DNA of 64,000 nt from sequence record MT932213.1; one strand, given 5' to 3'. This stretch comes from Escherichia phage VEc74. Within the stretch, counting starts at the first letter, position 1. Each line of letters begins with the position of its first letter. Position numbers and translations under genes: made by a program. Positions 18,714-56,202 of this stretch are shown here, one piece after another. The notes under the pieces were generated by a model. That model was not told the origin of the DNA and did not search any database. It saw only the letters and a program-made list of their open reading frames with translations.

Positions 18714-18743
18714 ACTATACCATAGTCTTGTCAGCTTGTAAAC
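18714..18743 (-). promoter_or_regulatory. T4-type early promoter
   Basis: GTTTAC, 17 bp, TGGTATAGT; the -35 overlaps the gene 41 stop codon. Confidence 0.5.
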
Positions 18744-45207: not shown

Positions 45208-46209
45208 TTACTTAATTAACTGTAAAGCTTGTTCAAGACGATCCAGGCGATTAACAGATTCTTCCCAAATCCTTTTAGCCTGCTCATATTCTTTCTGCGC
45301 TTTGTTAGAAATTTCTAGAACTTCTTTATAAGCTTTTTCTAGTGCAATAACTTCTGGACGAATTTCTACCGGTTCAGGTGAATCATCAAGATTATCCATT
45401 AGTTCCTCAAGGGTAGTTTCTTCTTTAGGAGTATTCACAATTTCATCACATTTTTGTTGGTAAATTTCTTTATCAGTAGGTGAATAAGCACATTTCACTT
45501 CACGAAGACTAATTACAATTTTATATCCTTCCCAGCCGCACATATTCTTAAAAGGATATGTATGAATATTTTCTACTGTTTCCATACAAAGTAATGCGGT
45601 CTCTAATTGACGAGTTATAGTGCTAGCAATTGAGAAAAATTTATTAATATTCTTTTGGTTAGCTTCTGGTGTAAAAAATCCATAATTCACAAAAATAGAT
45701 ACTTTATTTTTATCAAGTTCATATTCTTTTATGATAATCATATCAGAAGCCAAAGGATGAATTTGACGATAATCGCCATAACATAATTTAGAAGCTGATT
45801 TTAGAATTTGCTTCTTAAAAAGTCTGAAATTACTAATCCAACGACGAGTAAAAATATTCTCAGGGTCTTCTTTGACATTAAGATGATAAGAATTAACATC
45901 ACCGAACCAATTATATCCTACTACATCTTTGGTTCGTTTAATTTCTTTCCCAAAATTACCAAGAATATCCCGATTAACCAAATATGAAAGAAGACGAGAC
46001 TCTTTAAAGGTTTTCTTGATAACATCTTTATCTACACGGCTAGAAATTTTACGAATTTCATGAATAAATTTAGTAGAAGAAACAATACTTGCATCAACAC
46101 TATTGAGCCACTGATTGATAATAGAAATAACGCTATTTTGGCCAAACATCGGTATAGCTTTACCATCAATAACGCTATTGAATGATTTGATATATTCGTT
46201 ACGAGTCAT
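45208..46209 (-). CDS. hypothetical protein, paralog family member B
   Basis: 333-aa ORF from the ATG (MTRNEY); the tracked TTG extension lies inside the promoter. Confidence 0.55.
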   Translation of the reverse strand: MTRNEYIKSFNSVIDGKAIPMFGQNSVISIINQWLNSVDASIVSSTKFIHEIRKISSRVDKDVIKKTFKESRLLSYLVNRDILGNFGKEIKRTKDVVGYNWFGDVNSYHLNVKEDPENIFTRRWISNFRLFKKQILKSASKLCYGDYRQIHPLASDMIIIKEYELDKNKVSIFVNYGFFTPEANQKNINKFFSIASTITRQLETALLCMETVENIHTYPFKNMCGWEGYKIVISLREVKCAYSPTDKEIYQQKCDEIVNTPKEETTLEELMDNLDDSPEPVEIRPEVIALEKAYKEVLEISNKAQKEYEQAKRIWEESVNRLDRLEQALQLIK

Positions 46210-46237
46210 AATAATCTCCTCAGTAGAAAGTAAGAAC

Positions 46238-46267
46238 ATTATACCACATCCTTGTGGCAAAGTAAAC
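46238..46267 (-). promoter_or_regulatory. T4-type early promoter
   Basis: GTTTAC, 17 bp, TGGTATAAT; near-identical to the promoter at 2418-2447. Confidence 0.6.
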
Positions 46268-47286
46268 TAGTTCAGTGCATTTAGTGCATTGTTCAGTTTA
46301 GAACGTTGCTTTGTCAGATTTTGAACCCTTGACTGAGCTTGTTCTAACGCCTTTTCAGCTTCTAACACTTCATTGGTCGCTTTAACGAGTTCATCATCTA
46401 CTGCCTTAAGGGACTTCTCAATCGCATCCGCGTGCCATTTTTCAACAGGTTTAAGACTCGGATTTTCAATAGGAAGAAAATTCACTTTATTGAATTTCCA
46501 TGCATCTTTATTACCTGAACTATACATCCAAAATTTAGGATCATTTGACGAGTAATTAGATAAATTTAAGTTATCTTGCACTTCCTGCTTTTTCTCTTGC
46601 GGGACTTCGTCCTTTCTCAAAAAATCGTATTTAAATGAAACGATCATATCAAGTTCATATGATGTTGTATCTAACTTAAATCGTTCAAAACGAGGTAAAA
46701 TCTTAGATTGAACAGCAGCAACAACATCCATATACTTAAATGCTTCTGTCAACTGTGATTTAAGGCATTCACAAATTGAAAGAGAATTTTTTGTATTAGG
46801 TTTAAAGCTAATTCGTGCAGTTCTATTATTTTCTTTTAACGGTCTTACTTCCATCTGAAGAGTATAACCATCAAATTTCAGATTCTTTAAGTTAATATCA
46901 GAGCCTTTTAATCGACTAGCAGTAGACAAAATTTGCTTTAATTGTCTACGGAACAGAGCAATAAATCTCCATTCAATACGATAATGATTTGGATTGAAAA
47001 ATCCAGATGATAAATCGACCTTACTTTGACCAACGCCTTGAACAAATAGAGGATTTTTATAATCAATAGTTTTACAGAAATCGGTGAGCTGCTCACGAGC
47101 AGTCATTTGTGTAATATACCCCGCTTTATTAAAATGACGTAACCATTCACTGCTATTCATATATTTAAAGTGAATATCACGATTAACTTTATCAGGGTCT
47201 AAATTATTTTGGCACAAAAATGTCATAACATCACGAGTATAGCTGGCATTACGAACCATATCTTCAATTTGAGAACGAGTTTTCAT
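46267..47286 (-). CDS. hypothetical protein, paralog family member C
   Basis: 339-aa ORF. Confidence 0.55.
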   Translation of the reverse strand: MKTRSQIEDMVRNASYTRDVMTFLCQNNLDPDKVNRDIHFKYMNSSEWLRHFNKAGYITQMTAREQLTDFCKTIDYKNPLFVQGVGQSKVDLSSGFFNPNHYRIEWRFIALFRRQLKQILSTASRLKGSDINLKNLKFDGYTLQMEVRPLKENNRTARISFKPNTKNSLSICECLKSQLTEAFKYMDVVAAVQSKILPRFERFKLDTTSYELDMIVSFKYDFLRKDEVPQEKKQEVQDNLNLSNYSSNDPKFWMYSSGNKDAWKFNKVNFLPIENPSLKPVEKWHADAIEKSLKAVDDELVKATNEVLEAEKALEQAQSRVQNLTKQRSKLNNALNALN

Positions 47287-47294
47287 GGTGTTCC

Positions 47295-48209
47295 TTAAGA
47301 TTTAAGTAAATCAACAATTTTAATTAACTTTTCACGCTCAGATTTAGCTTTACTACTCAATCCGGATAGTCTGAAAATTTCATCGTCATATTGTTGAATA
47401 GAAATATTCAGCTCTTCAATTTGCTTATTAAAATAATCAATTTGTTCAGAATGTTTTTCGTTACTACGAACTGGTACAGGTTTTGTAGGCAATTTAGTTA
47501 AACTGGATTCATCCGGGCGATAAATTAAAATGCAATTTGAACCAATAGGGCATTTTGCACCAGATGAATATTCTAATGTTCCGGCTTCTTTTAAAACTTC
47601 AAAAGCTAAACAGAGATGATGCCCCATATTGACATAATCTGTAGAGTGAGCGCTGACGTAATAATCATCTCCACGAGTACTAAATTTAAAGCATTTAAGG
47701 TCTTCTGTATTATTAGTTTTAAAAATCATTTGTTTATCTAGACCTTTAGCCAATCGAGCGCCTAATGCTAATAATCGTCGTTGATTTTCCCACAAATCCG
47801 CAATCATTTGGTCGAATGATAATTTCGGCATTAGTCGACCATAAAGGTCGTATCCTTTATTATAATTGCGAAGGATTTCACTCGCATTAATACGAGACAA
47901 TGCTCCAATTTTATTAAGGGCTTTCATAATGCGATTAGATAAACTCATTCCAGACCCGTTTGTTCGCTGTAAATGTTTTTCTAATCCAAATCCAATATCA
48001 ACTTTAAATTTATCTAAAATTTCAGCATGAACATCTCTGTCAATAACATTCAAATCCAAAGTTGGGTTAAATCTATGAAAAAATTTATCTGGCTCTCCAC
48101 GACGAAATACAGTCCATTCATTCATCATTTTTTTATTAACTAAAGATTTAATTACTGCATTGACATTATTAATTACTACTGACATATTTTCCTCACTCAA
48201 TTTTACCAA
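47295..48209 (-). CDS. hypothetical protein, paralog family member D
   Basis: 304-aa ORF. Confidence 0.55.
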   Translation of the reverse strand: MVKLSEENMSVVINNVNAVIKSLVNKKMMNEWTVFRRGEPDKFFHRFNPTLDLNVIDRDVHAEILDKFKVDIGFGLEKHLQRTNGSGMSLSNRIMKALNKIGALSRINASEILRNYNKGYDLYGRLMPKLSFDQMIADLWENQRRLLALGARLAKGLDKQMIFKTNNTEDLKCFKFSTRGDDYYVSAHSTDYVNMGHHLCLAFEVLKEAGTLEYSSGAKCPIGSNCILIYRPDESSLTKLPTKPVPVRSNEKHSEQIDYFNKQIEELNISIQQYDDEIFRLSGLSSKAKSEREKLIKIVDLLKS

Positions 48210-49237: not shown

Positions 49238-49552
49238 CTAAAAGAAACTTCTTTCACAATTTTTTCCACTGAACCACGCGCTCACTGCTTTCTTAGTCTC
49301 AGGAGCAGTGTTATCCATAAACCATTCAAAGGCAGCCTTTTTATGATTCTGGAGGGCTTCTCGGGCTTTAATCTGTTCACGGTCTATTAACACTAACATA
49401 TGAGCCTTTCTTGTCACCATGGGCTTCTTATGATTTTTTGAATATTCCCAATCATTTGTCCATCGCATCGTTGTTGCGAATTGAAGTACAGCTTCTTTAA
49501 TCTTAGTTTCGTAAATTTCACGAGCCTTTGAGTATAACATCACTACCTCCAT
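49238..49552 (-). CDS. hypothetical protein
   Basis: 104-aa ORF. Confidence 0.45.
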   Translation of the reverse strand: MEVVMLYSKAREIYETKIKEAVLQFATTMRWTNDWEYSKNHKKPMVTRKAHMLVLIDREQIKAREALQNHKKAAFEWFMDNTAPETKKAVSAWFSGKNCERSFF

Positions 49553-49641
49553 TTACCAGTTTAATTCTAGTCATCTTTTTAATGGCAGTCCATATAATCT
49601 ATTTCTGAACTGCCTTTTTGTCTTAGAAGGCCTCTTATGAA

Positions 49642-50610
49642 TTATTTCAGAAGAGTAACCTCAGCAATTTCTTCCCAACCGTTTTTGTCGGTCATAATAA
49701 AGTCAGCAAGATAAAGAGCAGTACGCAGTGAAACATTGCGTAAACGGTTAACATTGACTTTCATCCATGATAATGCTTTATAAGTTTCTTCATCAGAAAG
49801 ACCGCGCTTTTGCATCATGTCGGTTGAAAGAATAACATCTTCAACCCTGACCATAATTTCTTCATTAGTGTGAACACCCAAATCCAAATAAACTGAGCGG
49901 GACACTAATGCTTGTAAATGTGGAGCAAGTTTAGTACCACGGTCTAATTCGCGGTCAATATCAACGTTTGTGATAAAAACAATCGTTCCTTTAAATTCAA
50001 ACTCACGGTCAATGCCTTTTTCTTCTAAGTAAGAAGATGCAGTGCTCCAGCAGACTTTACGGGTCTCTCCAGTGTCCAGAGCAGCTTTCAGAAGATTAAG
50101 AATGTCCATATCAGAGAAAACATCCACATCATCAATCAAAAGGACAGAATTCTCTTCACGATTATTCCAAAGCTGCTCATAAAGACCGATACCCGAGATT
50201 TTACCATTGATGCTTTTATATTCAATGTATCCAATATCATTTGCTTTATTCAAAGCTTTATCTAAAGAATACGTTTTACCAATACCTGCTGCTCCCGAGA
50301 TAATTAATGAACGAATGTTTCCGTTAATAATACCATTCGTCATCATTCCCATAACATTAAATCTTTTATTAATGCGGGTTTTCATATCTTCATATGATTC
50401 TTTAACTTCTTCAACTTTTACACCATCATATGAAATGTCTGATTTGTAAACCCAAACACCGCGACGTTTACCATCAATTTCAACAAAAACTTTACCATCT
50501 CCTTGTGCATCTACCGGAGCATTATCTGGGAACCATTCGCCTAAGAGCTCAAAAGTTCCAGAGATTTCTTTACCGAAGTAGATACCCTTATTGATAGTTA
50601 CAGTTTTCAT
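49642..50610 (-). CDS. AAA+/P-loop ATPase
   Basis: Walker A GAAGIGKT and Walker B VLLIDDVD; start at the ATG (MKTVTI), the tracked start is a TTG. Confidence 0.6.
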   Translation of the reverse strand: MKTVTINKGIYFGKEISGTFELLGEWFPDNAPVDAQGDGKVFVEIDGKRRGVWVYKSDISYDGVKVEEVKESYEDMKTRINKRFNVMGMMTNGIINGNIRSLIISGAAGIGKTYSLDKALNKANDIGYIEYKSINGKISGIGLYEQLWNNREENSVLLIDDVDVFSDMDILNLLKAALDTGETRKVCWSTASSYLEEKGIDREFEFKGTIVFITNVDIDRELDRGTKLAPHLQALVSRSVYLDLGVHTNEEIMVRVEDVILSTDMMQKRGLSDEETYKALSWMKVNVNRLRNVSLRTALYLADFIMTDKNGWEEIAEVTLLK

Positions 50611-50644
50611 TTTATTCTCCAAATCTGTATCAGTTGATAGTTGT

Positions 50645-50674
50645 ATAGTACCATAAAGCTTTATGCTTGTAAAC
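50645..50674 (-). promoter_or_regulatory. T4-type early promoter (part of a PeSL-like unit)
   Basis: GTTTAC, 17 bp, TGGTACTAT. Confidence 0.55.
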
Positions 50675-50699
50675 AGTTTTGTGAAAAATTTTTGAAATA

Positions 50700-50722
50700 A
50701 AAAAAGGAGCCCGAAGGCTCCC
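50700..50722 (-). terminator. rho-independent terminator
   Basis: GGAGCC-UUCG-GGCUCC hairpin followed by a run of 7 U. Confidence 0.6.
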
Positions 50723-50724
50723 TA

Positions 50725-51738
50725 TCATTTATAATAACTTCGGTGGTTTTCAAGATAAACCTTCTCAAGGAAGTCATCCCAAAAACCCATGTCTACTTTT
50801 TGCTGCATACCGTTCTTAGAAGCTTCAGTAGATGCTGCTTCTACTTGATCGACCACATCTTCCAAAAACTCTTGAACCGTTTTAAATGGATGTTTACCCA
50901 ACTTCACGTCGAGAATAAATGGAGCGTCTTGAAGTGGATAAACCAAGTCACCAGTTTTGTAAATTTCCAATAGTTGAAGTCCACCACGACAAGCATGGCT
51001 CAGAGCTTTCCAGTCAATACCTTCGTTGGCTTCGGCCTTACGGGCACGTTCACCATATTCAGCATCTAATTTGTTCAGTGACTGCTTAAGCTCAATAAGA
51101 GAAAGCGTTGTCTGATATTTACGACCCAACACAGTGTAGAACGTTTGTGGGCCTGTTTTCTCATGATTATGGAACACCCATTCACAGAATTCGTTTTCTG
51201 GAAGACGATGCTTAATATCTTCAACTTTAGTACGACGCTGCTTAATGGAACCGTCTTCTTGGTAATCAACCCATTGCTCAGGGATTTGATTAACTACTTT
51301 CAATACATCACGTAATGCAGCCAAACGAGAACCCTTGACCCCGTATTTAGAAGCTTGCTTACGGACATATCCTAAATAGGATTTCATGTTAGTCGTATAA
51401 AAACGAGAACGGTTGTCTTGAATAAACTTCCACACATCAGGCAAATCAGATTTAACCATTAGTTCAGGTGGAGTGTGAAGCATATCTAATGCTACGGTTT
51501 CACCATCTGCTGCTAATTTAAAGAAATATTTAAGACTGTATAGTTCATGGTCAATATCATCTTTAGTGTTTTTAGATGATGTGTTGTTAGTGTTTTTACT
51601 CATGTGCTCTTTGACATTTCCGATAAGAATATCACGAGCAGGAGGAACAAAAATTTCTTTAAAATCTACATCAGATTCTGGGGTAGAAGTTCCATAAAGA
51701 TGACTACCAAAATAGCTTTTCATTACTGTTTTCATCAT
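50725..51738 (-). CDS. predicted nucleotidyltransferase (Pol-beta superfamily fold)
   Basis: N-terminal GS-x9-DVD motif (GSHLYGTSTPESDVDF) with downstream acidic residues. Confidence 0.55.
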   Translation of the reverse strand: MMKTVMKSYFGSHLYGTSTPESDVDFKEIFVPPARDILIGNVKEHMSKNTNNTSSKNTKDDIDHELYSLKYFFKLAADGETVALDMLHTPPELMVKSDLPDVWKFIQDNRSRFYTTNMKSYLGYVRKQASKYGVKGSRLAALRDVLKVVNQIPEQWVDYQEDGSIKQRRTKVEDIKHRLPENEFCEWVFHNHEKTGPQTFYTVLGRKYQTTLSLIELKQSLNKLDAEYGERARKAEANEGIDWKALSHACRGGLQLLEIYKTGDLVYPLQDAPFILDVKLGKHPFKTVQEFLEDVVDQVEAASTEASKNGMQQKVDMGFWDDFLEKVYLENHRSYYK

Positions 51739-52196
51739 TCAGCCTTATATTCAATAACAGGACATACTTTAGCTTTACGAGCTTTTAAAAATTCGACGAT
51801 AATCGATTTCTTGGGTTGAATAGGAGGTAAACCTTTATACGCCCTATCAATATTTTCTACGTGTAAAGCATAATCCTTTTTCCATTTATAGTCTTTATAT
51901 TTTTCATGCAAATGTGCAGGAATAACAAATGAACCGATAATAAGTAAAACAACCAAAAGCGCAAGTATAAATGCCGATGGAAGAAGAGTCCATAAACTAC
52001 CGAAAATAAGCCAACGTTGTAGGCTTTCTGCACAAATAATTGTTAGCCCTACGAGTATAGCACACCCAAAAATAGAAACGAAAAATGTAGGAATGGCAAT
52101 AGACCAAAAATATGCGCATAGTGTCTTAGGTCGTTGCCATTCATCGTTAAACAATTTGAATAATTTATAGTGCCAAGAGTTTTCATTAATAATCAT
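51735..52196 (-). CDS. membrane protein
   Basis: 153-aa ORF with three or four hydrophobic segments; ATGATGA overlap with the nucleotidyltransferase start. Confidence 0.5.
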   Translation of the reverse strand: MIINENSWHYKLFKLFNDEWQRPKTLCAYFWSIAIPTFFVSIFGCAILVGLTIICAESLQRWLIFGSLWTLLPSAFILALLVVLLIIGSFVIPAHLHEKYKDYKWKKDYALHVENIDRAYKGLPPIQPKKSIIVEFLKARKAKVCPVIEYKAE

Positions 52197-52198
52197 AA

Positions 52199-52720
52199 TT
52201 ATCCTTTCATTGAAGGCGTAACGGTTGTTAAATACTTAATCATAGCTTCAGCTTCTGATTTTGATAATGAAATTTCTCCATTGTTTTGACGAATAGAAAT
52301 AAAATCCGGATGACGGTCACCACCAGCTTTTAAAACACACATATAAGTATCAGTTTCATCTTCAATATCTGAAATGATTGAAGCAGTTCCACACGAATGT
52401 GGTTTTTGATAAATCAATACAGCTTTTCTTCCACCGTTTGACTGTTCATAAACTTTTAACACATCAAACAAATCACTTCTTTTATCAATAGCTAAGATGT
52501 TGTTTTCATCTTCAATATTAAATCCTTCGGATACTTCATAAAGTGTCACCCATAAATCACCTATATCGATAGTAGCATTTTCCTTTCCATGACTTTCAAG
52601 AGCATGACAAATTTTCTTAATTTCGTCATAACTCATTTTAATAATATCATCTCCTTGACTAAGGAAGATGTCATTTTTAAATTCAACACGAATTAAACCG
52701 CTTCCACTTGAAATAAACAT
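52199..52720 (-). CDS. hypothetical protein (paralog pair, member 1)
   Basis: 173-aa ORF; C-terminus resembles that of the next ORF. Confidence 0.5.
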   Translation of the reverse strand: MFISSGSGLIRVEFKNDIFLSQGDDIIKMSYDEIKKICHALESHGKENATIDIGDLWVTLYEVSEGFNIEDENNILAIDKRSDLFDVLKVYEQSNGGRKAVLIYQKPHSCGTASIISDIEDETDTYMCVLKAGGDRHPDFISIRQNNGEISLSKSEAEAMIKYLTTVTPSMKG

Positions 52721-52726
52721 ATTTCC

Positions 52727-53260
52727 TCACTTTGAAATCATAGTTGGAATAACAGAATCAAGATAAGTTTTTAGTGCAATAGCTTCGTCTTTGTTTAATG
52801 TAATGATATGTGATCGAAAATCGTCAATTTGACGAATAGATACTATATTTCCCTCTTCATAGCATTTTGACACATTTAAAATAGTTTCATCATTATGATT
52901 ACAGGAGTTAGTAATAATAGCATTACATTTTTTAAACCATTTTAAATTATGTTTTATTTTAGTAGAATCATAAAAATATTTAATGTTAGTTATAAAATTA
53001 TCCCAATTATTAATTGATAAGCACATTGACTCGCTTTTAATATTAAATCCTGGGCATGAAGAATAAAAATGAATTTTATGCTCATCATTAATGCTTACAA
53101 TTTTATCAGTGTAAGCATATTCAATTTGGGTTAAACGAACAATTTCGCTAAGCGTAAAATATAACATGTCATCTTCTTGCGTCAAACGATACATGTTATT
53201 TACTTTTTCTATAGCCAATTCACCAAAAAGTGGACTAACTTCTAATACTAATCGTTTCAT
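52727..53260 (-). CDS. hypothetical protein (paralog pair, member 2)
   Basis: ORF from the ATG (MKRLVLEV); C-terminal similarity to 52199-52720. Confidence 0.5.
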   Translation of the reverse strand: MKRLVLEVSPLFGELAIEKVNNMYRLTQEDDMLYFTLSEIVRLTQIEYAYTDKIVSINDEHKIHFYSSCPGFNIKSESMCLSINNWDNFITNIKYFYDSTKIKHNLKWFKKCNAIITNSCNHNDETILNVSKCYEEGNIVSIRQIDDFRSHIITLNKDEAIALKTYLDSVIPTMISK

Positions 53261-53419
53261 ATTGATTCTCTTCGACTCGCTCACAATTACATACTCCTTT
53301 GAATAATATCAATAATGTTGTTCACCAAATTATAAGTAAACATTGGGTAATTATATTGAATCATCACATACACAACAAACAAAACTTTCATTCTCTTCTC
53401 CTTGGCAGTTGACAAGATT

Positions 53420-53449
53420 ACTATACCATAACCTTGCCAACTTGTAAAC
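53420..53449 (-). promoter_or_regulatory. T4-type early promoter
   Basis: GTTTAC, 17 bp, TGGTATAGT. Confidence 0.5.
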
Positions 53450-53451
53450 CA

Positions 53452-53625
53452 TTAAATGACGTTTTCAATAAAATTCTGAAGCTTTGTGTGAGCATCAACC
53501 ATGATTTTCATTTCTTCTTTGGCGAAAGCTGTACCTCTTTCCCGAGAAGAATATTCATAGTCAGAAACTGCATTAGCATATTCTTCAATTAGCTTCATTA
53601 AAAACATCTGCTTTTCAGTTTTCAT
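53452..53625 (-). CDS. small hypothetical protein
   Basis: 57-aa ORF with a GGTGG RBS; hand-translated. Confidence 0.3.
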   Translation of the reverse strand: MKTEKQMFLMKLIEEYANAVSDYEYSSRERGTAFAKEEMKIMVDAHTKLQNFIENVI

Positions 53626-53809
53626 TATTCCACCTAATCATTTCAAGATATTGAACTAACTTAGCTTTAGATTTGTCCAAATCCTTTTTAGTTGCTTCTA
53701 TACCGTCGTATGAATATCCTTCACAATGCTCAACTGCCAATTGATATGAATCTATTTCAATATCACGTGCTAATTTAATGATTTTTTCAAACTGTTCACG
53801 TGTTAGCAT
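53615..53809 (-). CDS. hypothetical protein
   Basis: 64-aa ORF. Confidence 0.4.
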   Translation of the reverse strand: MLTREQFEKIIKLARDIEIDSYQLAVEHCEGYSYDGIEATKKDLDKSKAKLVQYLEMIRWNNEN

Positions 53810-53811
53810 AC

Positions 53812-54015
53812 TTAAACTCTCGTATTATGATCGATAATTTCATCAAGAAACATATCTAACGCTTCTAAAGCATTATCCACTTTAGTTTCAAAGTCTTTAA
53901 TGCCTTTATTCGAAATACCCGATGAATACCAAGCAAAGTCAATCAGCTCTTCATCTGCTTTACGAATTAAAGCTACCAATTCCTTAATTTTATCCGCTTG
54001 TTCGATACTAATCAT
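53812..54015 (-). CDS. hypothetical protein
   Basis: ORF from the internal ATG (MISIEQ). Confidence 0.4.
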   Translation of the reverse strand: MISIEQADKIKELVALIRKADEELIDFAWYSSGISNKGIKDFETKVDNALEALDMFLDEIIDHNTRV

Positions 54016-54203
54016 TATTCCACCACATATGAAAGAGAGAATATTGCACACGCCATGTGAGTTGCAACTTCATCACACATATTATAACGTTTCTTGAGAA
54101 GTTCTACAAGTTCTTCACTAGTAACTTCATCCATGTCGACGAAAAAATCACCATTAATGATGACGTAGATATTTCCTTCTTGATTAAGTGCTTCAATTTT
54201 CAT
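54015..54203 (-). CDS. hypothetical protein
   Basis: ORF from the ATG (MKIEALN) with an AAGAGGAG RBS. Confidence 0.4.
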
Positions 54204-54231
54204 GATGTTCTCCTCTTTATCCGATGGTTGT

Positions 54232-54261
54232 ATAGTACCACAGCTCAAACGGAAAGTAAAC
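54232..54261 (-). promoter_or_regulatory. T4-type early promoter (part of a PeSL-like unit)
   Basis: GTTTAC, 17 bp, TGGTACTAT. Confidence 0.55.
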
Positions 54262-54271
54262 CGGTAAAATG

Positions 54272-54296
54272 AAAAAAGTCTCCCGAAGGAGACTAA
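54272..54296 (-). terminator. rho-independent terminator
   Basis: GUCUCC-UUCG-GGAGAC hairpin followed by UUUUUU. Confidence 0.6.
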
Positions 54297-54298
54297 TG

Positions 54299-54685
54299 TT
54301 ATTCGAGGGAAAGAAGATACTTACTTTGGTAAAACATTCCAGTAATATCATCTATCGTGCTTTGAATGGCTGGAGGCATTTCTTTATAAATGCTGTTAGA
54401 TTGATCTAGTATGTGATCAATCATTTTAATTGTGTCGGTAGGAAGTTTACTGGCATCTGGAATTGAAGGTGTGTATTTTCTACCAGAATACCCCAAATAT
54501 TGCTCACCAAATTTATCAATCAAATCTGGCAACTCGGAGAAAATAAAATCGTATGCTTTGTGTCTAGCATAACTTTTAGTTTCAAAATGTGCAGAATGAA
54601 AATAAGCTTGTGCAGCCATTAATAAACCTAAGTATTCATCTGCCTTTGAAGGTTTTCCACTTTGTGAAAAGTCGCTGAATTTCAT
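54299..54685 (-). CDS. hypothetical protein (rI.-1 position)
   Basis: 128-aa ORF. Confidence 0.45.
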
Positions 54686-55825: not shown

Positions 55826-56014
55826 TTAGTCCTTAGTTAAATTTTCTAAATATGTTTCTAAATCATTTTCAGCTTTATCGATAGATTTTACTAATTCGTA
55901 ATATGTTTCGGCATCTCCATAATCAGAAGATAATTCAAAAGACAAATCCTTTTCTAAACTAATAATTTCACCAACTAAAAATAATATTTCGTTCTTTTGT
56001 TCGCGAGTAATCAT
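55826..56014 (-). CDS. hypothetical protein
   Basis: 62-aa ORF. Confidence 0.4.
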   Translation of the reverse strand: MITREQKNEILFLVGEIISLEKDLSFELSSDYGDAETYYELVKSIDKAENDLETYLENLTKD

Positions 56015-56202
56015 AAGGAATTTATATAATCAATGAGTTCTTGTTCTTTATTATCGAATTCTTTAGAAAGTTCTTCATACTCGTTTGCACTAAAAGGACC
56101 ACATTCATTACAAACTTTTTCCAATTCACTATTTTTATCCATAACTTCGTGGATAAGAGAAAAGAGTTTGTCTTTTTGTTCTTTGCTTAAACTCATAACC
56201 AT
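56011..56202 (-). CDS. hypothetical protein
   Basis: 63-aa ORF. Confidence 0.4.
   Translation of the reverse strand: MVMSLSKEQKDKLFSLIHEVMDKNSELEKVCNECGPFSANEYEELSKEFDNKEQELIDYINSL

Follow-up and report, generated by a model that had tools for sequence, protein, structure and literature searches.

Two diverged y05I/MobD.1 family members encoded in tandem upstream of a membrane-protein gene in a T4-like phage

Introduction

Two adjacent open reading frames (ORFs) of a T4-like phage, referred to here as ORF-A and ORF-B, encode two diverged members of the y05I/MobD.1 protein family, which is restricted to T-even-like phages. They are located in the window, a stretch of 64,000 nucleotides from Escherichia phage VEc74 (MT932213.1; Tequatrovirus). 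The statements on the identity and evolution of the pair, taken jointly, are close to certain, and ORF-A, ORF-B, a small membrane protein, and NrdC.11 are probably members of one unit. The best explanation overall combines family membership, the common unit, an allele slot, and partnership with the membrane protein, and as a whole it is given slightly more credence than doubt. The observation is correct but ordinary: the genes are common in T4-like phages and dispensable, hundreds of deposited genomes of T4-like phages carry nearly identical copies of both, and the pair is already assigned to a single family without an annotated function in Pfam and PHROGs. No functional study was found in the literature on “mobD.1” and “y05I,” and the sole mention of “mobD.1” found by full-text search is in a review table, as a map position. 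By itself the finding matters little; its useful by-products are comparative. The full module is missing from the model phages, owing to mobD in T4 and to frameshifts in T2, which may explain why no function is known. Furthermore, the conserved core, a C-domain gene tightly coupled to a membrane gene near the gene of a predicted RNA-end nucleotidyltransferase, provides a concrete experimental target, and the Pfam name “putative transcription factor,” together with similar database names, has no support and should not be propagated.

Identity and Paralogy of the Two Genes

The original prediction described two ORFs of 173 and 177 aa as a tandem paralog pair sharing a C-terminal motif. Both ORFs are present, on the minus strand (Table 1), and both quoted motif strings were found in them. 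The paralogy had been understated: BLASTP aligns residues 3–171 of ORF-B with residues 16–182 of the 185-aa form of ORF-A at 25% identity (E = 2e-9), such that significant similarity extends well beyond the quoted segment, and the N- and C-terminal Pfam models of the family each match both proteins. Briefly, PF24449 (T4_y05I_N; curated cut-off, 24.9 bits) matches ORF-B with 113.7 bits (E = 7e-33) and ORF-A with 145.1 bits (E = 1e-42), and PF24448 (T4_y05I_C; cut-off, 27 bits) matches them with 81.5 bits (E = 6e-23) and 71.7 bits (E = 7e-20), respectively. Both proteins match phrog_1502 from end to end (E = 2e-66 for ORF-B and 2e-75 for ORF-A), and a profile search of the window in six frames identified exactly these two copies. 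ORF-A is 95% identical to T4 MobD.1, ORF-B is 96.5% identical to its RB18 ortholog RB32ORF097c, and both lie between mobD.2 and nrdC.11, as expected of this family in T4-like phages. Of the two in-frame starts of ORF-A, the GTG has a better Shine-Dalgarno sequence (AAGGAG, approximately 9 nt before it) than the ATG.

Table 1. Features of the y05I locus in the window.
Feature	Coordinates	Strand	Remarks
nrdC.10, AAA+ gene	49642..50622		AAA-family Pfam matches
Separate early promoter-like site for nrdC.10	50645..50674	minus	Consensus search
Intrinsic terminator, end of unit	50704..50723	minus	8-bp stem, 5 GC pairs, 4-nt loop, T-run
NrdC.11, predicted RlaP-family (PF10127) Pol-beta nucleotidyltransferase	50725..51738	minus	Start overlaps stop of membrane gene (ATGA)
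Basic membrane protein, 153 aa	51735..52196	minus	pI 9.3; start 2 nt after ORF-B stop
Segment swapped for HNH homing-endonuclease gene mobD in T4	51740..52701	minus	blastn, window vs T4
ORF-B	52199..52720	minus	Second y05I-family paralog, RB32ORF097c type; 173 aa; acidic, pI 4.75
GATGAAACT microhomology, ORF-B arm of A::B hybrid junction	52352..52360	minus	9-mer
ORF-A	52727..53284	minus	T4 MobD.1 (Y05I) ortholog; 177 aa (ATG 53260) or 185 aa (GTG 53284)
GATGAAACT microhomology, ORF-A arm of A::B hybrid junction	52883..52891	minus	9-mer
mobD.2-like small ORF	53287..53415	minus	First gene after promoter; 42 aa (ORF call), 34 aa in T4
T4-type early promoter-like site	53420..53449	minus	GTTTACA-N-TGGTATAGT; upstream of mobD.2 and the pair

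In comparisons with related phages, dN/dS ranges from 0.03 to 0.14 for ORF-B and from 0.17 to 0.95 for ORF-A, the figure of 0.95 depending on very few substitutions (dS 0.01), and the neighboring genes show values of 0.00–0.33, mostly below 0.1. These values indicate that both ORFs are genuine protein-coding genes and that purifying selection acts on them, though less strongly than on their neighbors. ORF-B is conserved at 90–99% across approximately 430 genomes. An AT-rich region (GC 0.31) and a pairwise identity of just 25% might suggest that chance or composition explains the similarity and that the ORFs are not genuine genes, a reading refuted by the pairwise E-value together with the independent HMM matches, purifying selection, and hundreds of orthologs.

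Transcription Unit and Neighboring Genes

From the promoter, the unit comprises mobD.2, ORF-A, ORF-B, the small membrane protein, and NrdC.11 and ends at a strong terminator, and the junctions of the pair, the membrane gene, and nrdC.11 are 2-nt or overlapping. The promoter-like site is the best sigma-70-like site of the region, with 10 of 12 matches and a TG extension. The pattern GTTTAC-N15-TGGTA occurs 16 times in the window, always on the minus strand, against 0.76 occurrences expected by chance. In the annotation of vB_EcoM_Lutter, a promoter and a terminator are found at the positions homologous to the two sites that bound the unit. Early expression of the unit is suggested by the promoter consensus and these annotations, and inspection by eye of the pair for a MotA-type middle promoter yielded nothing convincing. 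The first gene matches phrog_3515 (E = 4e-22), its homologs are labeled mobD.2 in T4, T2, and RB18, and a homolog in another T4-like locus (L026) matches the Pfam family Phage_T4_Y05J. An Rfam scan of 49400–54400 found no RNA family.

The original prediction stated that the pair follows the membrane protein and precedes an early promoter. The direction has to be reversed: because the genes lie on the minus strand, transcription passes through the pair before reaching the membrane gene, and the T4-type early promoter-like site is located upstream of the pair and would drive it. The prediction further suggested that the pair may belong to the accessory module of the AAA+/nucleotidyltransferase cluster. 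The pair, the membrane protein, and NrdC.11 do appear to form one unit, but the AAA+ gene nrdC.10 falls outside it, cut off by the strong terminator and preceded by its own promoter-like site.

The membrane protein has two long hydrophobic blocks (residues 29–60 and 62–98), matches phrog_944, annotated “membrane protein” (E = 1.5e-50), and is 99.3% identical to its counterpart in RB18/RB32, RB32ORF096c; His9, Cys27, and Cys145 are invariant in seven aligned homologs. It covers just positions 85–229 of the 235-position PHROG profile, and fusions with the y05I C-terminal domain were therefore searched for; none was found among the 120 matches listed of 146, all of which are 83–179 aa long. NrdC.11 is 97.9% identical to T4 NrdC.11 and matches PF10127 with 44.1 bits (cut-off, 23) and phrog_388 with E = 3e-136. 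T4 NrdC.11 has been assigned to cluster 5 of the RlaP family, which extends damaged RNA 3′ ends, an activity shown for the Pseudomonas enzymes alone (PMC12776372). NrdC.11 of the window is thus a predicted RlaP-type RNA 3′-end nucleotidyltransferase.

Conserved Adjacency in T4-like Phages

Counts of phage records with tblastn matches are 1504 for NrdC.11, 912 for the membrane protein, 727 for the y05I family, and approximately 433 for the B-type protein (at least 80% identity). Co-occurrence was assessed on these record counts, as an IMG/VR scan gave 14 loci, too few for statistics. The distributions are nested in the order given, and the independent distribution that would have spoken against a module was not observed. 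The order of y05I gene, membrane gene, and nrdC.11 recurs in Mosigvirus, Dhakavirus, Jiaodavirus, and unclassified T4-like contigs, although the linkage is not obligatory, as T4 has ORF-A alone.

A gene for a y05I protein or for its C-terminal domain (y05I_C) adjoins the membrane gene in RB18, Mosigvirus APCEc01, and Dhakavirus VR5. A stand-alone C-domain of 83 aa (L018) and one of 73 aa in Klebsiella Jiaodavirus JEC (E = 1e-20) are each encoded 2 nt upstream of the membrane gene, as is a B-type protein that is the sole y05I copy at its locus (L026; 57% identical to ORF-B). In Mosigvirus and Dhakavirus, the sole copy is A-like. The adjacency with its 2-nt spacer is kept in at least four lineages despite otherwise changed surroundings, and a C-domain gene located 2–10 nt upstream of the membrane gene is an ancient, invariant element.

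Plasticity of the Locus and Origin of the Pair

Tequatrovirus phages carry A and B in tandem, and phages with a single A-like copy and phages with a single B-like copy both exist. Judging from these comparisons, the A-type and B-type genes appear to be alternative alleles that occupy one slot immediately upstream of the membrane gene. The occurrence of the B-type as sole copy in L026 and of the A-like type as sole copy in Mosigvirus and Dhakavirus favors an origin of the pair from the joining of two alleles over a tandem duplication in situ.

The slot is a recombination hot spot, at which swaps of A cassettes, an A::B hybrid, frameshifts in T2, a natural deletion in Bas43, and a replacement by mobD in T4 have occurred. 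The dS between ORF-A and diverged alleles is 0.23–1.3, compared with approximately 0.1 in the flanks. The hybrid gene (P0011 of L021) is A-type up to the 9-mer GATGAAACT and B-type beyond it. In T2, all three genes (A, B, and the membrane gene) carry frameshifts. In T4, homology with the window breaks sharply at 51739 and resumes at 52702 (blastn), and the replaced segment contains the membrane gene and ORF-B except for its first 19 nt. T4 thus retains ATGTTTATTTCAAGTGGAA, i.e., the start codon and six codons of ORF-B, as a 19-nt remnant, after which it diverges; the ribosome-binding site, the ATG, and the first six codons are fused to unrelated sequence. T4 keeps copy A as an intact MobD.1 but no longer has B or the membrane gene. 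These two genes have been lost or damaged jointly in T4, T2, and Bas43. The T4 gene mobD is promoter-less and embedded in the unit, comparable with mobE and segG, and the review describing it gives its activity as “ND” and its target as “unknown” (PMC2988022). The nrdC.11–mobD.3 fragment was lost in a viable genome-reduced T4 (PMC9825161), indicating that the y05I genes are dispensable.

T4 is the reference genome, and its arrangement (MobD.1, mobD, nrdC.11) differs from that of the window by a clean replacement with sharp boundaries; hence it might be regarded as ancestral, with ORF-B and the membrane gene inserted later. Such a polarity is very improbable, being contradicted already by the ORF-B remnant in T4, by the presence of the y05I and membrane gene arrangement in other genera, and by the numbers of records: true mobD (at least 95% identity) is found in just 47, compared with approximately 430 that carry B and the membrane gene.

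Possible Functions of the y05I Family

In ORF-A and ORF-B, the N-terminal domain is variable, and the conserved C-terminal domain ends in ...SIRQ...K.EA.A...YL..V.P.M. Both proteins are soluble and acidic, and across the family the median pI is 4.9 and the median net charge −8 (range, −3 to −20), with N-domains of −3 to −12 and negative C-domains in 10 of 13 cases. An exhaustive HMM search of 1.84 billion representatives gave 19 matches, all from T-even-like phages, and there is accordingly no distant cellular relative from which a function could be borrowed. Among 25 members, Pfam searches at E-values up to 10 identified nothing beyond the two y05I models and DUF7189, and HMMs of NCBIfam and of PADLOC, which covers anti-phage defence and related families, did not match ORF-A, ORF-B, the membrane protein, NrdC.11, or NrdC.10.

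The invariant position of the C-domain gene upstream of the membrane gene leads to the proposal that the y05I proteins act in the cytoplasm as partners or regulators of the basic membrane protein. In this model, the C-domain would serve for docking and the variable N-domain for specificity, two copies would provide two specificities, and the whole would constitute an early module for interaction with the host that is not essential and may be linked to RNA-end repair by NrdC.11. The charges of the acidic y05I proteins and of the membrane protein are complementary, which is counted in favor of the partnership. This mechanism, in which soluble partners of the adjacent membrane protein act in a non-essential early module, is possible and is proposed tentatively, as it falls well short of being probable. 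T4 has an intact MobD.1 without the membrane protein, implying that copy A is tolerated, or functional, alone. Against the partnership stand the lack of a fused protein among the membrane-protein matches listed, the possibility that adjacency in a gene-dense early region reflects shared history rather than shared function, and a predicted structure of good confidence (pLDDT 85) without an informative structural neighbor.

It is rather unlikely that the genes are functionally unrelated to their neighbors and that the tandem is a neutral by-product of recombination, in a hyperplastic region, between phages differing in their alleles. The region from rI.-1 to nrdC.11 is full of small variable ORFs, swaps, and deletions, with an endonuclease insertion, natural and laboratory phages are viable without these genes, the dN/dS values exceed those of the neighboring genes, and T4 keeps A without B or the membrane gene. 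A neutral by-product is nevertheless difficult to reconcile with the survival of the C-domain gene/membrane gene adjacency and its 2-nt spacer in at least four lineages, with the 90–99% conservation of B at dN/dS 0.03–0.14 in approximately 430 genomes, and with the finding that three phages have B and the membrane gene lost or damaged jointly.

The proteins might instead bind nucleic acid, either as transcription regulators or as β4-α binders of ssRNA or ssDNA that feed damaged RNA ends to NrdC.11. The Pfam family name and the adjacent gene for an enzyme of the RlaP family, which extends damaged RNA 3′ ends (PMC12776372), point in this direction, as does the predicted structure. The AF2 model of ORF-A, built from a 25-sequence alignment, has a secondary structure of (β4-α)(β4-α) followed by (β5-α), such that the N-domain holds two β4-α-like units and the C-domain one. 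A topology of this kind is not sufficient to define a fold. The model of ORF-B, built from five aligned sequences, reached pLDDT 41.6 and could not be used. The β4-α repeat topology is that of PUR-α, Whirly, and PC4. The first and last β-β-α units of the y05I protein are weakly homologous (hhalign probability, 73%; E = 3e-5), and in the search for internal repeats the middle unit gave no signal. Structure searches of BFVD returned family members only, other than a phage “Whirly transcription factor” matched at E = 0.09 with TM-scores of 0.23–0.28.

Several results argue against nucleic-acid binding, which is judged unlikely. The whole family is acidic, including most C-domains, and none of the 25 members matches helix-turn-helix or other DNA- or RNA-binding Pfam models at E-values up to 10. 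No PDB entry reached E below 1e-3 in Foldseek, where TM-scores were at most 0.38; the matches are generic modules of β-sheet plus helix (e.g., tandem PH domains, sliding clamps, and a dioxygenase), and PUR, Whirly, and PC4 entries are absent from the best 50. Among PDB sequences, neither the full-family profile nor the C-domain profile had a significant match. Two specific assignments lack support: the “transcription factor” label, as the 25 members match no DNA-binding Pfam model at E-values up to 10 and the net charge of the family is approximately −8, and the PUR/Whirly/PC4 fold, for which Foldseek against the PDB found no significant similarity to a solved member.

The preferred partnership with the membrane protein can be extended further. 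The y05I C-domain protein, the basic membrane protein, and the RlaP-type NrdC.11 may together constitute an early counter-defence module of T-even-like phages, responding, e.g., to host RNA-damaging nucleases, an extension that is decidedly doubtful. If it is correct, the fast-swapping acidic N-domains would be specificity determinants or decoys, two tandem alleles would broaden the range of host factors handled, and such biology would have been missed in T4 because mobD erased half of the module.

Comparison With Known Systems

The predicted topology of the y05I proteins, with its β4-α units, is similar to that of PUR-α, Whirly, and PC4; y05I differs from them in being acidic and in having no significant structural or sequence match to them. 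The free-standing homing-endonuclease cassettes of T-even phages resemble the system in locus, not in proteins: T4 mobD occupies the exact place of ORF-B and the membrane gene, and the window has no mobD.

Stand-alone y05I_C or DUF7189 (PF23819) proteins of Klebsiella Jiaodavirus and of Yersinia, Serratia, and Erwinia phages share with the window the C-domain and the position directly upstream of a homologous membrane protein, but lack the N-terminal domain and have a total length of 63–83 aa. The relationship of DUF7189 to the C-domain is weak, with a match to ORF-B at E = 5e-5, which is below the cut-off, and matches in 8 of 25 family members. Jiaodavirus also has a tandem pair, made up of a DUF7189 gene and a y05I_C gene.

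Among the closest known systems is T4 MobD.1 (UniProt Y05I; PHROG 1502), of which ORF-A is the ortholog, likewise positioned after mobD.2; ORF-B has the identical two-domain architecture and matches the same models, but shares just 25% identity, and T4 carries one y05I copy whereas the window carries two. Finally, RB32ORF097c and RB32ORF096c of RB18 and RB32 are direct orthologs of ORF-B and the membrane protein in identical order, and, apart from being annotated merely as hypothetical proteins, they show no difference of substance from the genes described here.

Paralogy and Family Assignment

The two open reading frames (ORFs) considered here, the MobD.1-type gene (ORF-A) and its neighboring paralog (ORF-B), are both present as originally predicted, with the quoted C-terminal strings, and the proposed paralogy holds over a wider region than was first seen. 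The two proteins align essentially end to end, past the quoted segment (25% identity, E = 2e-9, BLASTP), and each separately matches the Pfam domains T4_y05I_N (E = 7e-33 and 1e-42) and T4_y05I_C, referred to as the C-domain (E = 6e-23 and 7e-20), and the full length of phrog_1502. ORF-A could also be 185 aa long, starting at an in-frame GTG (53284) that has AAGGAG ahead of it. T4 MobD.1 (UniProt Y05I) is the ortholog of ORF-A (95% identity), and the counterpart of ORF-B is labeled RB32ORF097c in the RB18 annotation; ORF-B is found at an identity of at least 80% in 433 phage records (tblastn). A family profile search detected only these two y05I copies in the 64 kb window. Against five related phages, dN/dS is 0.03–0.14 for ORF-B and 0.17–0.95 for ORF-A, the value of 0.95 deriving from very few substitutions, and 0.00–0.33, mostly below 0.1, for the genes neighboring the pair. 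The family of the pair is thus a known one, catalogued before and common among the T4-like phages sequenced to date.

Transcription Unit and Locus

At 80–99% identity, the 2-kb stretch around the pair has matches in 505 records of the phage collection, nearly all of them T4-like phages (genus Tequatrovirus) of Escherichia, Shigella, or Yersinia, the closest being vB_EcoM_Lutter (97.6%). Every gene here lies on the minus strand, and the pair is surrounded by well-known T4 genes: tk, rI.1, rI, rI.-1, and the mobD.x and nrdC.x ORFs.

Features of the locus, in order along the minus strand
Order	Feature	Coordinates	Strand	Remarks
1	Early promoter-like site	53449..53420	minus	motif GTTTAC-N15-TGGTA at 53424-53449
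2	mobD.2-like small ORF		minus	
3	ORF-A	52727..53260	minus	177 aa
4	ORF-B	52199..52720	minus	173 aa; start 6 nt past ORF-A stop; own GAGG
5	Membrane protein	51735-52196	minus	153 aa; start 2 nt past ORF-B stop
6	NrdC.11		minus	start overlaps stop of membrane gene (ATGA)
7	Strong terminator	50723..50704	minus	
8	Second early promoter-like site, then AAA+ gene nrdC.10	50674..50645	minus	

The motif GTTTAC-N15-TGGTA, which fits the T4 early-promoter consensus, occurs with at most one mismatch at 16 sites in the window, all on the minus strand (0.76 expected by chance), including 2422-2447, 18718-18743, 50649-50674, 53424-53449, and 54236-54261. Together, the 16 sites seem to chart the T4-type early promoters of the window, and promoters and a terminator are annotated at equivalent places in the Lutter record. 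The order of promoter, genes, and terminator on the minus strand implies that the predicted promoter drives the pair, that the membrane protein comes after the pair, and that nrdC.10 falls in the next unit. The original prediction, which was right as an observation, had placed the pair after the membrane protein and ahead of a promoter, and had proposed a module shared with an AAA+/nucleotidyltransferase cluster. With the strand and the direction of the promoter set right, part of this interpretation stands: the pair falls into one predicted unit with the membrane protein and NrdC.11, but nrdC.10 follows the terminator and has its own promoter-like site. Separately, an extra 161-aa ORF, absent from the window, lies between nrdC.10 and nrdC.11 in T2 (L001, 2413-2898) and in some metagenomic relatives, among them L021 (6160-6645); in L021 it is tagged as Pfam Mod_ADP_RT, an ADP-ribosyltransferase-like family.

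Replacement, Frameshifting, and Loss

Homology between the window and T4 ends at 51739 and restarts at 52702; between these breakpoints, the membrane gene and ORF-B give way in T4 to mobD, an HNH homing-endonuclease gene. T4 still has the beginning of ORF-B (its ribosome-binding site and ATG with the six codons that come first), and therefore the arrangement of the window is older than that of T4. A leader ORF of 23 codons begins with this remnant, and its TGA and the ATG of mobD overlap (ATGA; L003, NC_000866, 7209-7280, minus strand); mobD appears to use the translation start signals of ORF-B through coupling. True mobD (at least 95% identity) is found in 47 records only. T2 DNA (L001, LC348380) is 96.7% identical to the window, with five deletions of 1–2 nt (equivalent to window positions 52094, 52341, 52570, 52933, and 53159), a pair each in A and B and a single one in the membrane gene, so that all three are frameshifted and the annotation is fragmented; the deletion pairs in A and in B each total 3 nt, and the frame is regained after ~230 nt. 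Several T2 records share one match length, 1993 nt. In the BASEL phage Bas43, a deletion has removed the mobD.x ORFs and ORF-A; all that is left, directly past rI.-1, is a fusion ORF of 96 aa that closes with C-terminal sequence of ORF-B. The membrane gene of Bas43 is truncated. Furthermore, the nrdC.11-mobD.3 fragment is lost in a viable genome-reduced T4 (PMC9825161); the genes of this locus are dispensable in the laboratory.

Linkage of the C-Domain Gene with the Membrane Gene

When 1.84 billion representative proteins were searched exhaustively with a profile, only 19 y05I matches emerged, all T-even-like and including C-domain-only proteins of 75–83 aa. An 83-aa C-domain gene in an IMG/VR T4-like contig and a 73-aa one (E = 1e-20) in the Klebsiella Jiaodavirus JEC both stop 2 nt ahead of the homologous membrane gene, and in both genomes further ORFs lie between the membrane gene and nrdC.11. 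The JEC gene is preceded by a DUF7189 gene, and DUF7189 is weakly similar to the C-domain. The record counts of the neighboring genes are nested: NrdC.11 (1504), membrane protein (912), y05I (727), and B-type (~433). ORF-B and the membrane gene are jointly replaced, frameshifted, or truncated in T4, T2, and Bas43. Conserved adjacency, nested counts, and joint damage thus show that the C-domain gene is linked most strongly to the membrane gene, more loosely to NrdC.11, and to nrdC.10 by proximity only.

Recombination and Origin of the Tandem

The y05I slot is a hot spot for recombination. By identity, the homologs of ORF-A form four groups, most of them at roughly 80–90% and the others near 95–99%, 45%, and 30%, and the dS of ORF-A is 0.4–1.3 where that of the flanks is ~0.1. 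Homology with RB18 is lost just upstream of ORF-A (53286) and regained within it (52861), the swapped cassette comprising an extra small ORF and the ~133 first codons of ORF-A. The metagenomic protein P0011, the sole y05I gene product at its locus in L021, joins an A-type N-domain to a B-type C-domain at the 9-nt string GATGAAACT, which is common to A (52883-52891) and B (52352-52360). Other single copies are P0010, a protein with 57% identity to ORF-B from the T4-like contig L026, and the A-like protein of Mosigvirus and Dhakavirus. We infer that one slot has two alternative alleles, A-type and B-type, which became joined in tandem in Tequatrovirus; the pair could still stem from an old duplication in situ. 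The membrane protein beside the hybrid (L021, 4549-5022) is itself mosaic: its N-terminal and middle parts are Mosigvirus-like, and ~40 C-terminal residues are identical to the window type. Leads of modest use from these comparisons are the replacement by mobD, which left a remnant of ORF-B, together with the hybrid, the swapped alleles, and the core of C-domain and membrane genes.

Annotation of Nearby Small ORFs

In database records, gene names have widely led to wrong annotations. MobD.x proteins, including T4 RefSeq mobD.4 and many ORF-A orthologs, are mislabeled [quoted passage not shown] nrdC.8-nrdC.11 "thioredoxin," the ORF-A fragments of T2 "prohead core scaffold protein," and a 61-aa DUF7438 ORF "helicase loader." DUF7438 (Pfam) covers many of the small ORFs that separate rI.-1 from the pair (mobD.2a, mobD.3, and mobD.4; window 53452-54250, minus strand) and past tk (tk.1 and tk.2; window 55826-56202, minus strand), as listed in the tables of L021-L023; these make up a further group of small paralogs, dispersed or in tandem. 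A "Phage_tudor" ORF lies directly upstream of the y05I gene in some relatives. Three adjacent ORFs of 304–350 aa (nrdC.4, nrdC.5, and nrdC.6-like; window 45208-48209, minus strand) each have a coiled-coil-like end and show no significant pairwise similarity by BLASTP (E = 0.06–0.16); if paralogs, they have diverged too far for this method.

Clues to Function

The AF2 model of ORF-A (pLDDT 85, above 90 in the N-domain; pTM 0.62) predicts two β4-α units followed by a β5-α unit; the first and last β-β-α units of y05I are weakly similar. Foldseek found no significant match to the model in the PDB and family members only in BFVD, the sequence profiles likewise matched nothing in the PDB, and no further model in Pfam, PADLOC, or NCBIfam matched y05I. 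The family is acidic throughout (median pI 4.9, net charge about -3 to -20) and has no hydrophobic segment. This acidity, the lack of other Pfam or PDB matches, and the remaining clues speak against calling the proteins a "transcription factor." In contrast to y05I, the membrane protein has a basic pI of 9.3; it belongs to no Pfam family and has 146 homologs, apparently all of T4-like phages. Its conserved motifs are N-terminal SWH and LCxYFW and C-terminal KARKxKxCP; His9, Cys27, and Cys145, invariant in the window and in the homologs of records L005, L006, L018, L021, L024, and L025, lie at presumably cytoplasmic ends and could form a metal site linking both tails. The evidence is compatible with, and does not prove, a non-essential early module for host interaction in which y05I proteins would be the membrane protein's soluble partners. 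NrdC.11 is a member of the RlaP family; in bacteria, RlaP enzymes extend damaged RNA 3′ ends by one or two nucleotides and contribute to the recovery of tRNA function (PMC12776372).
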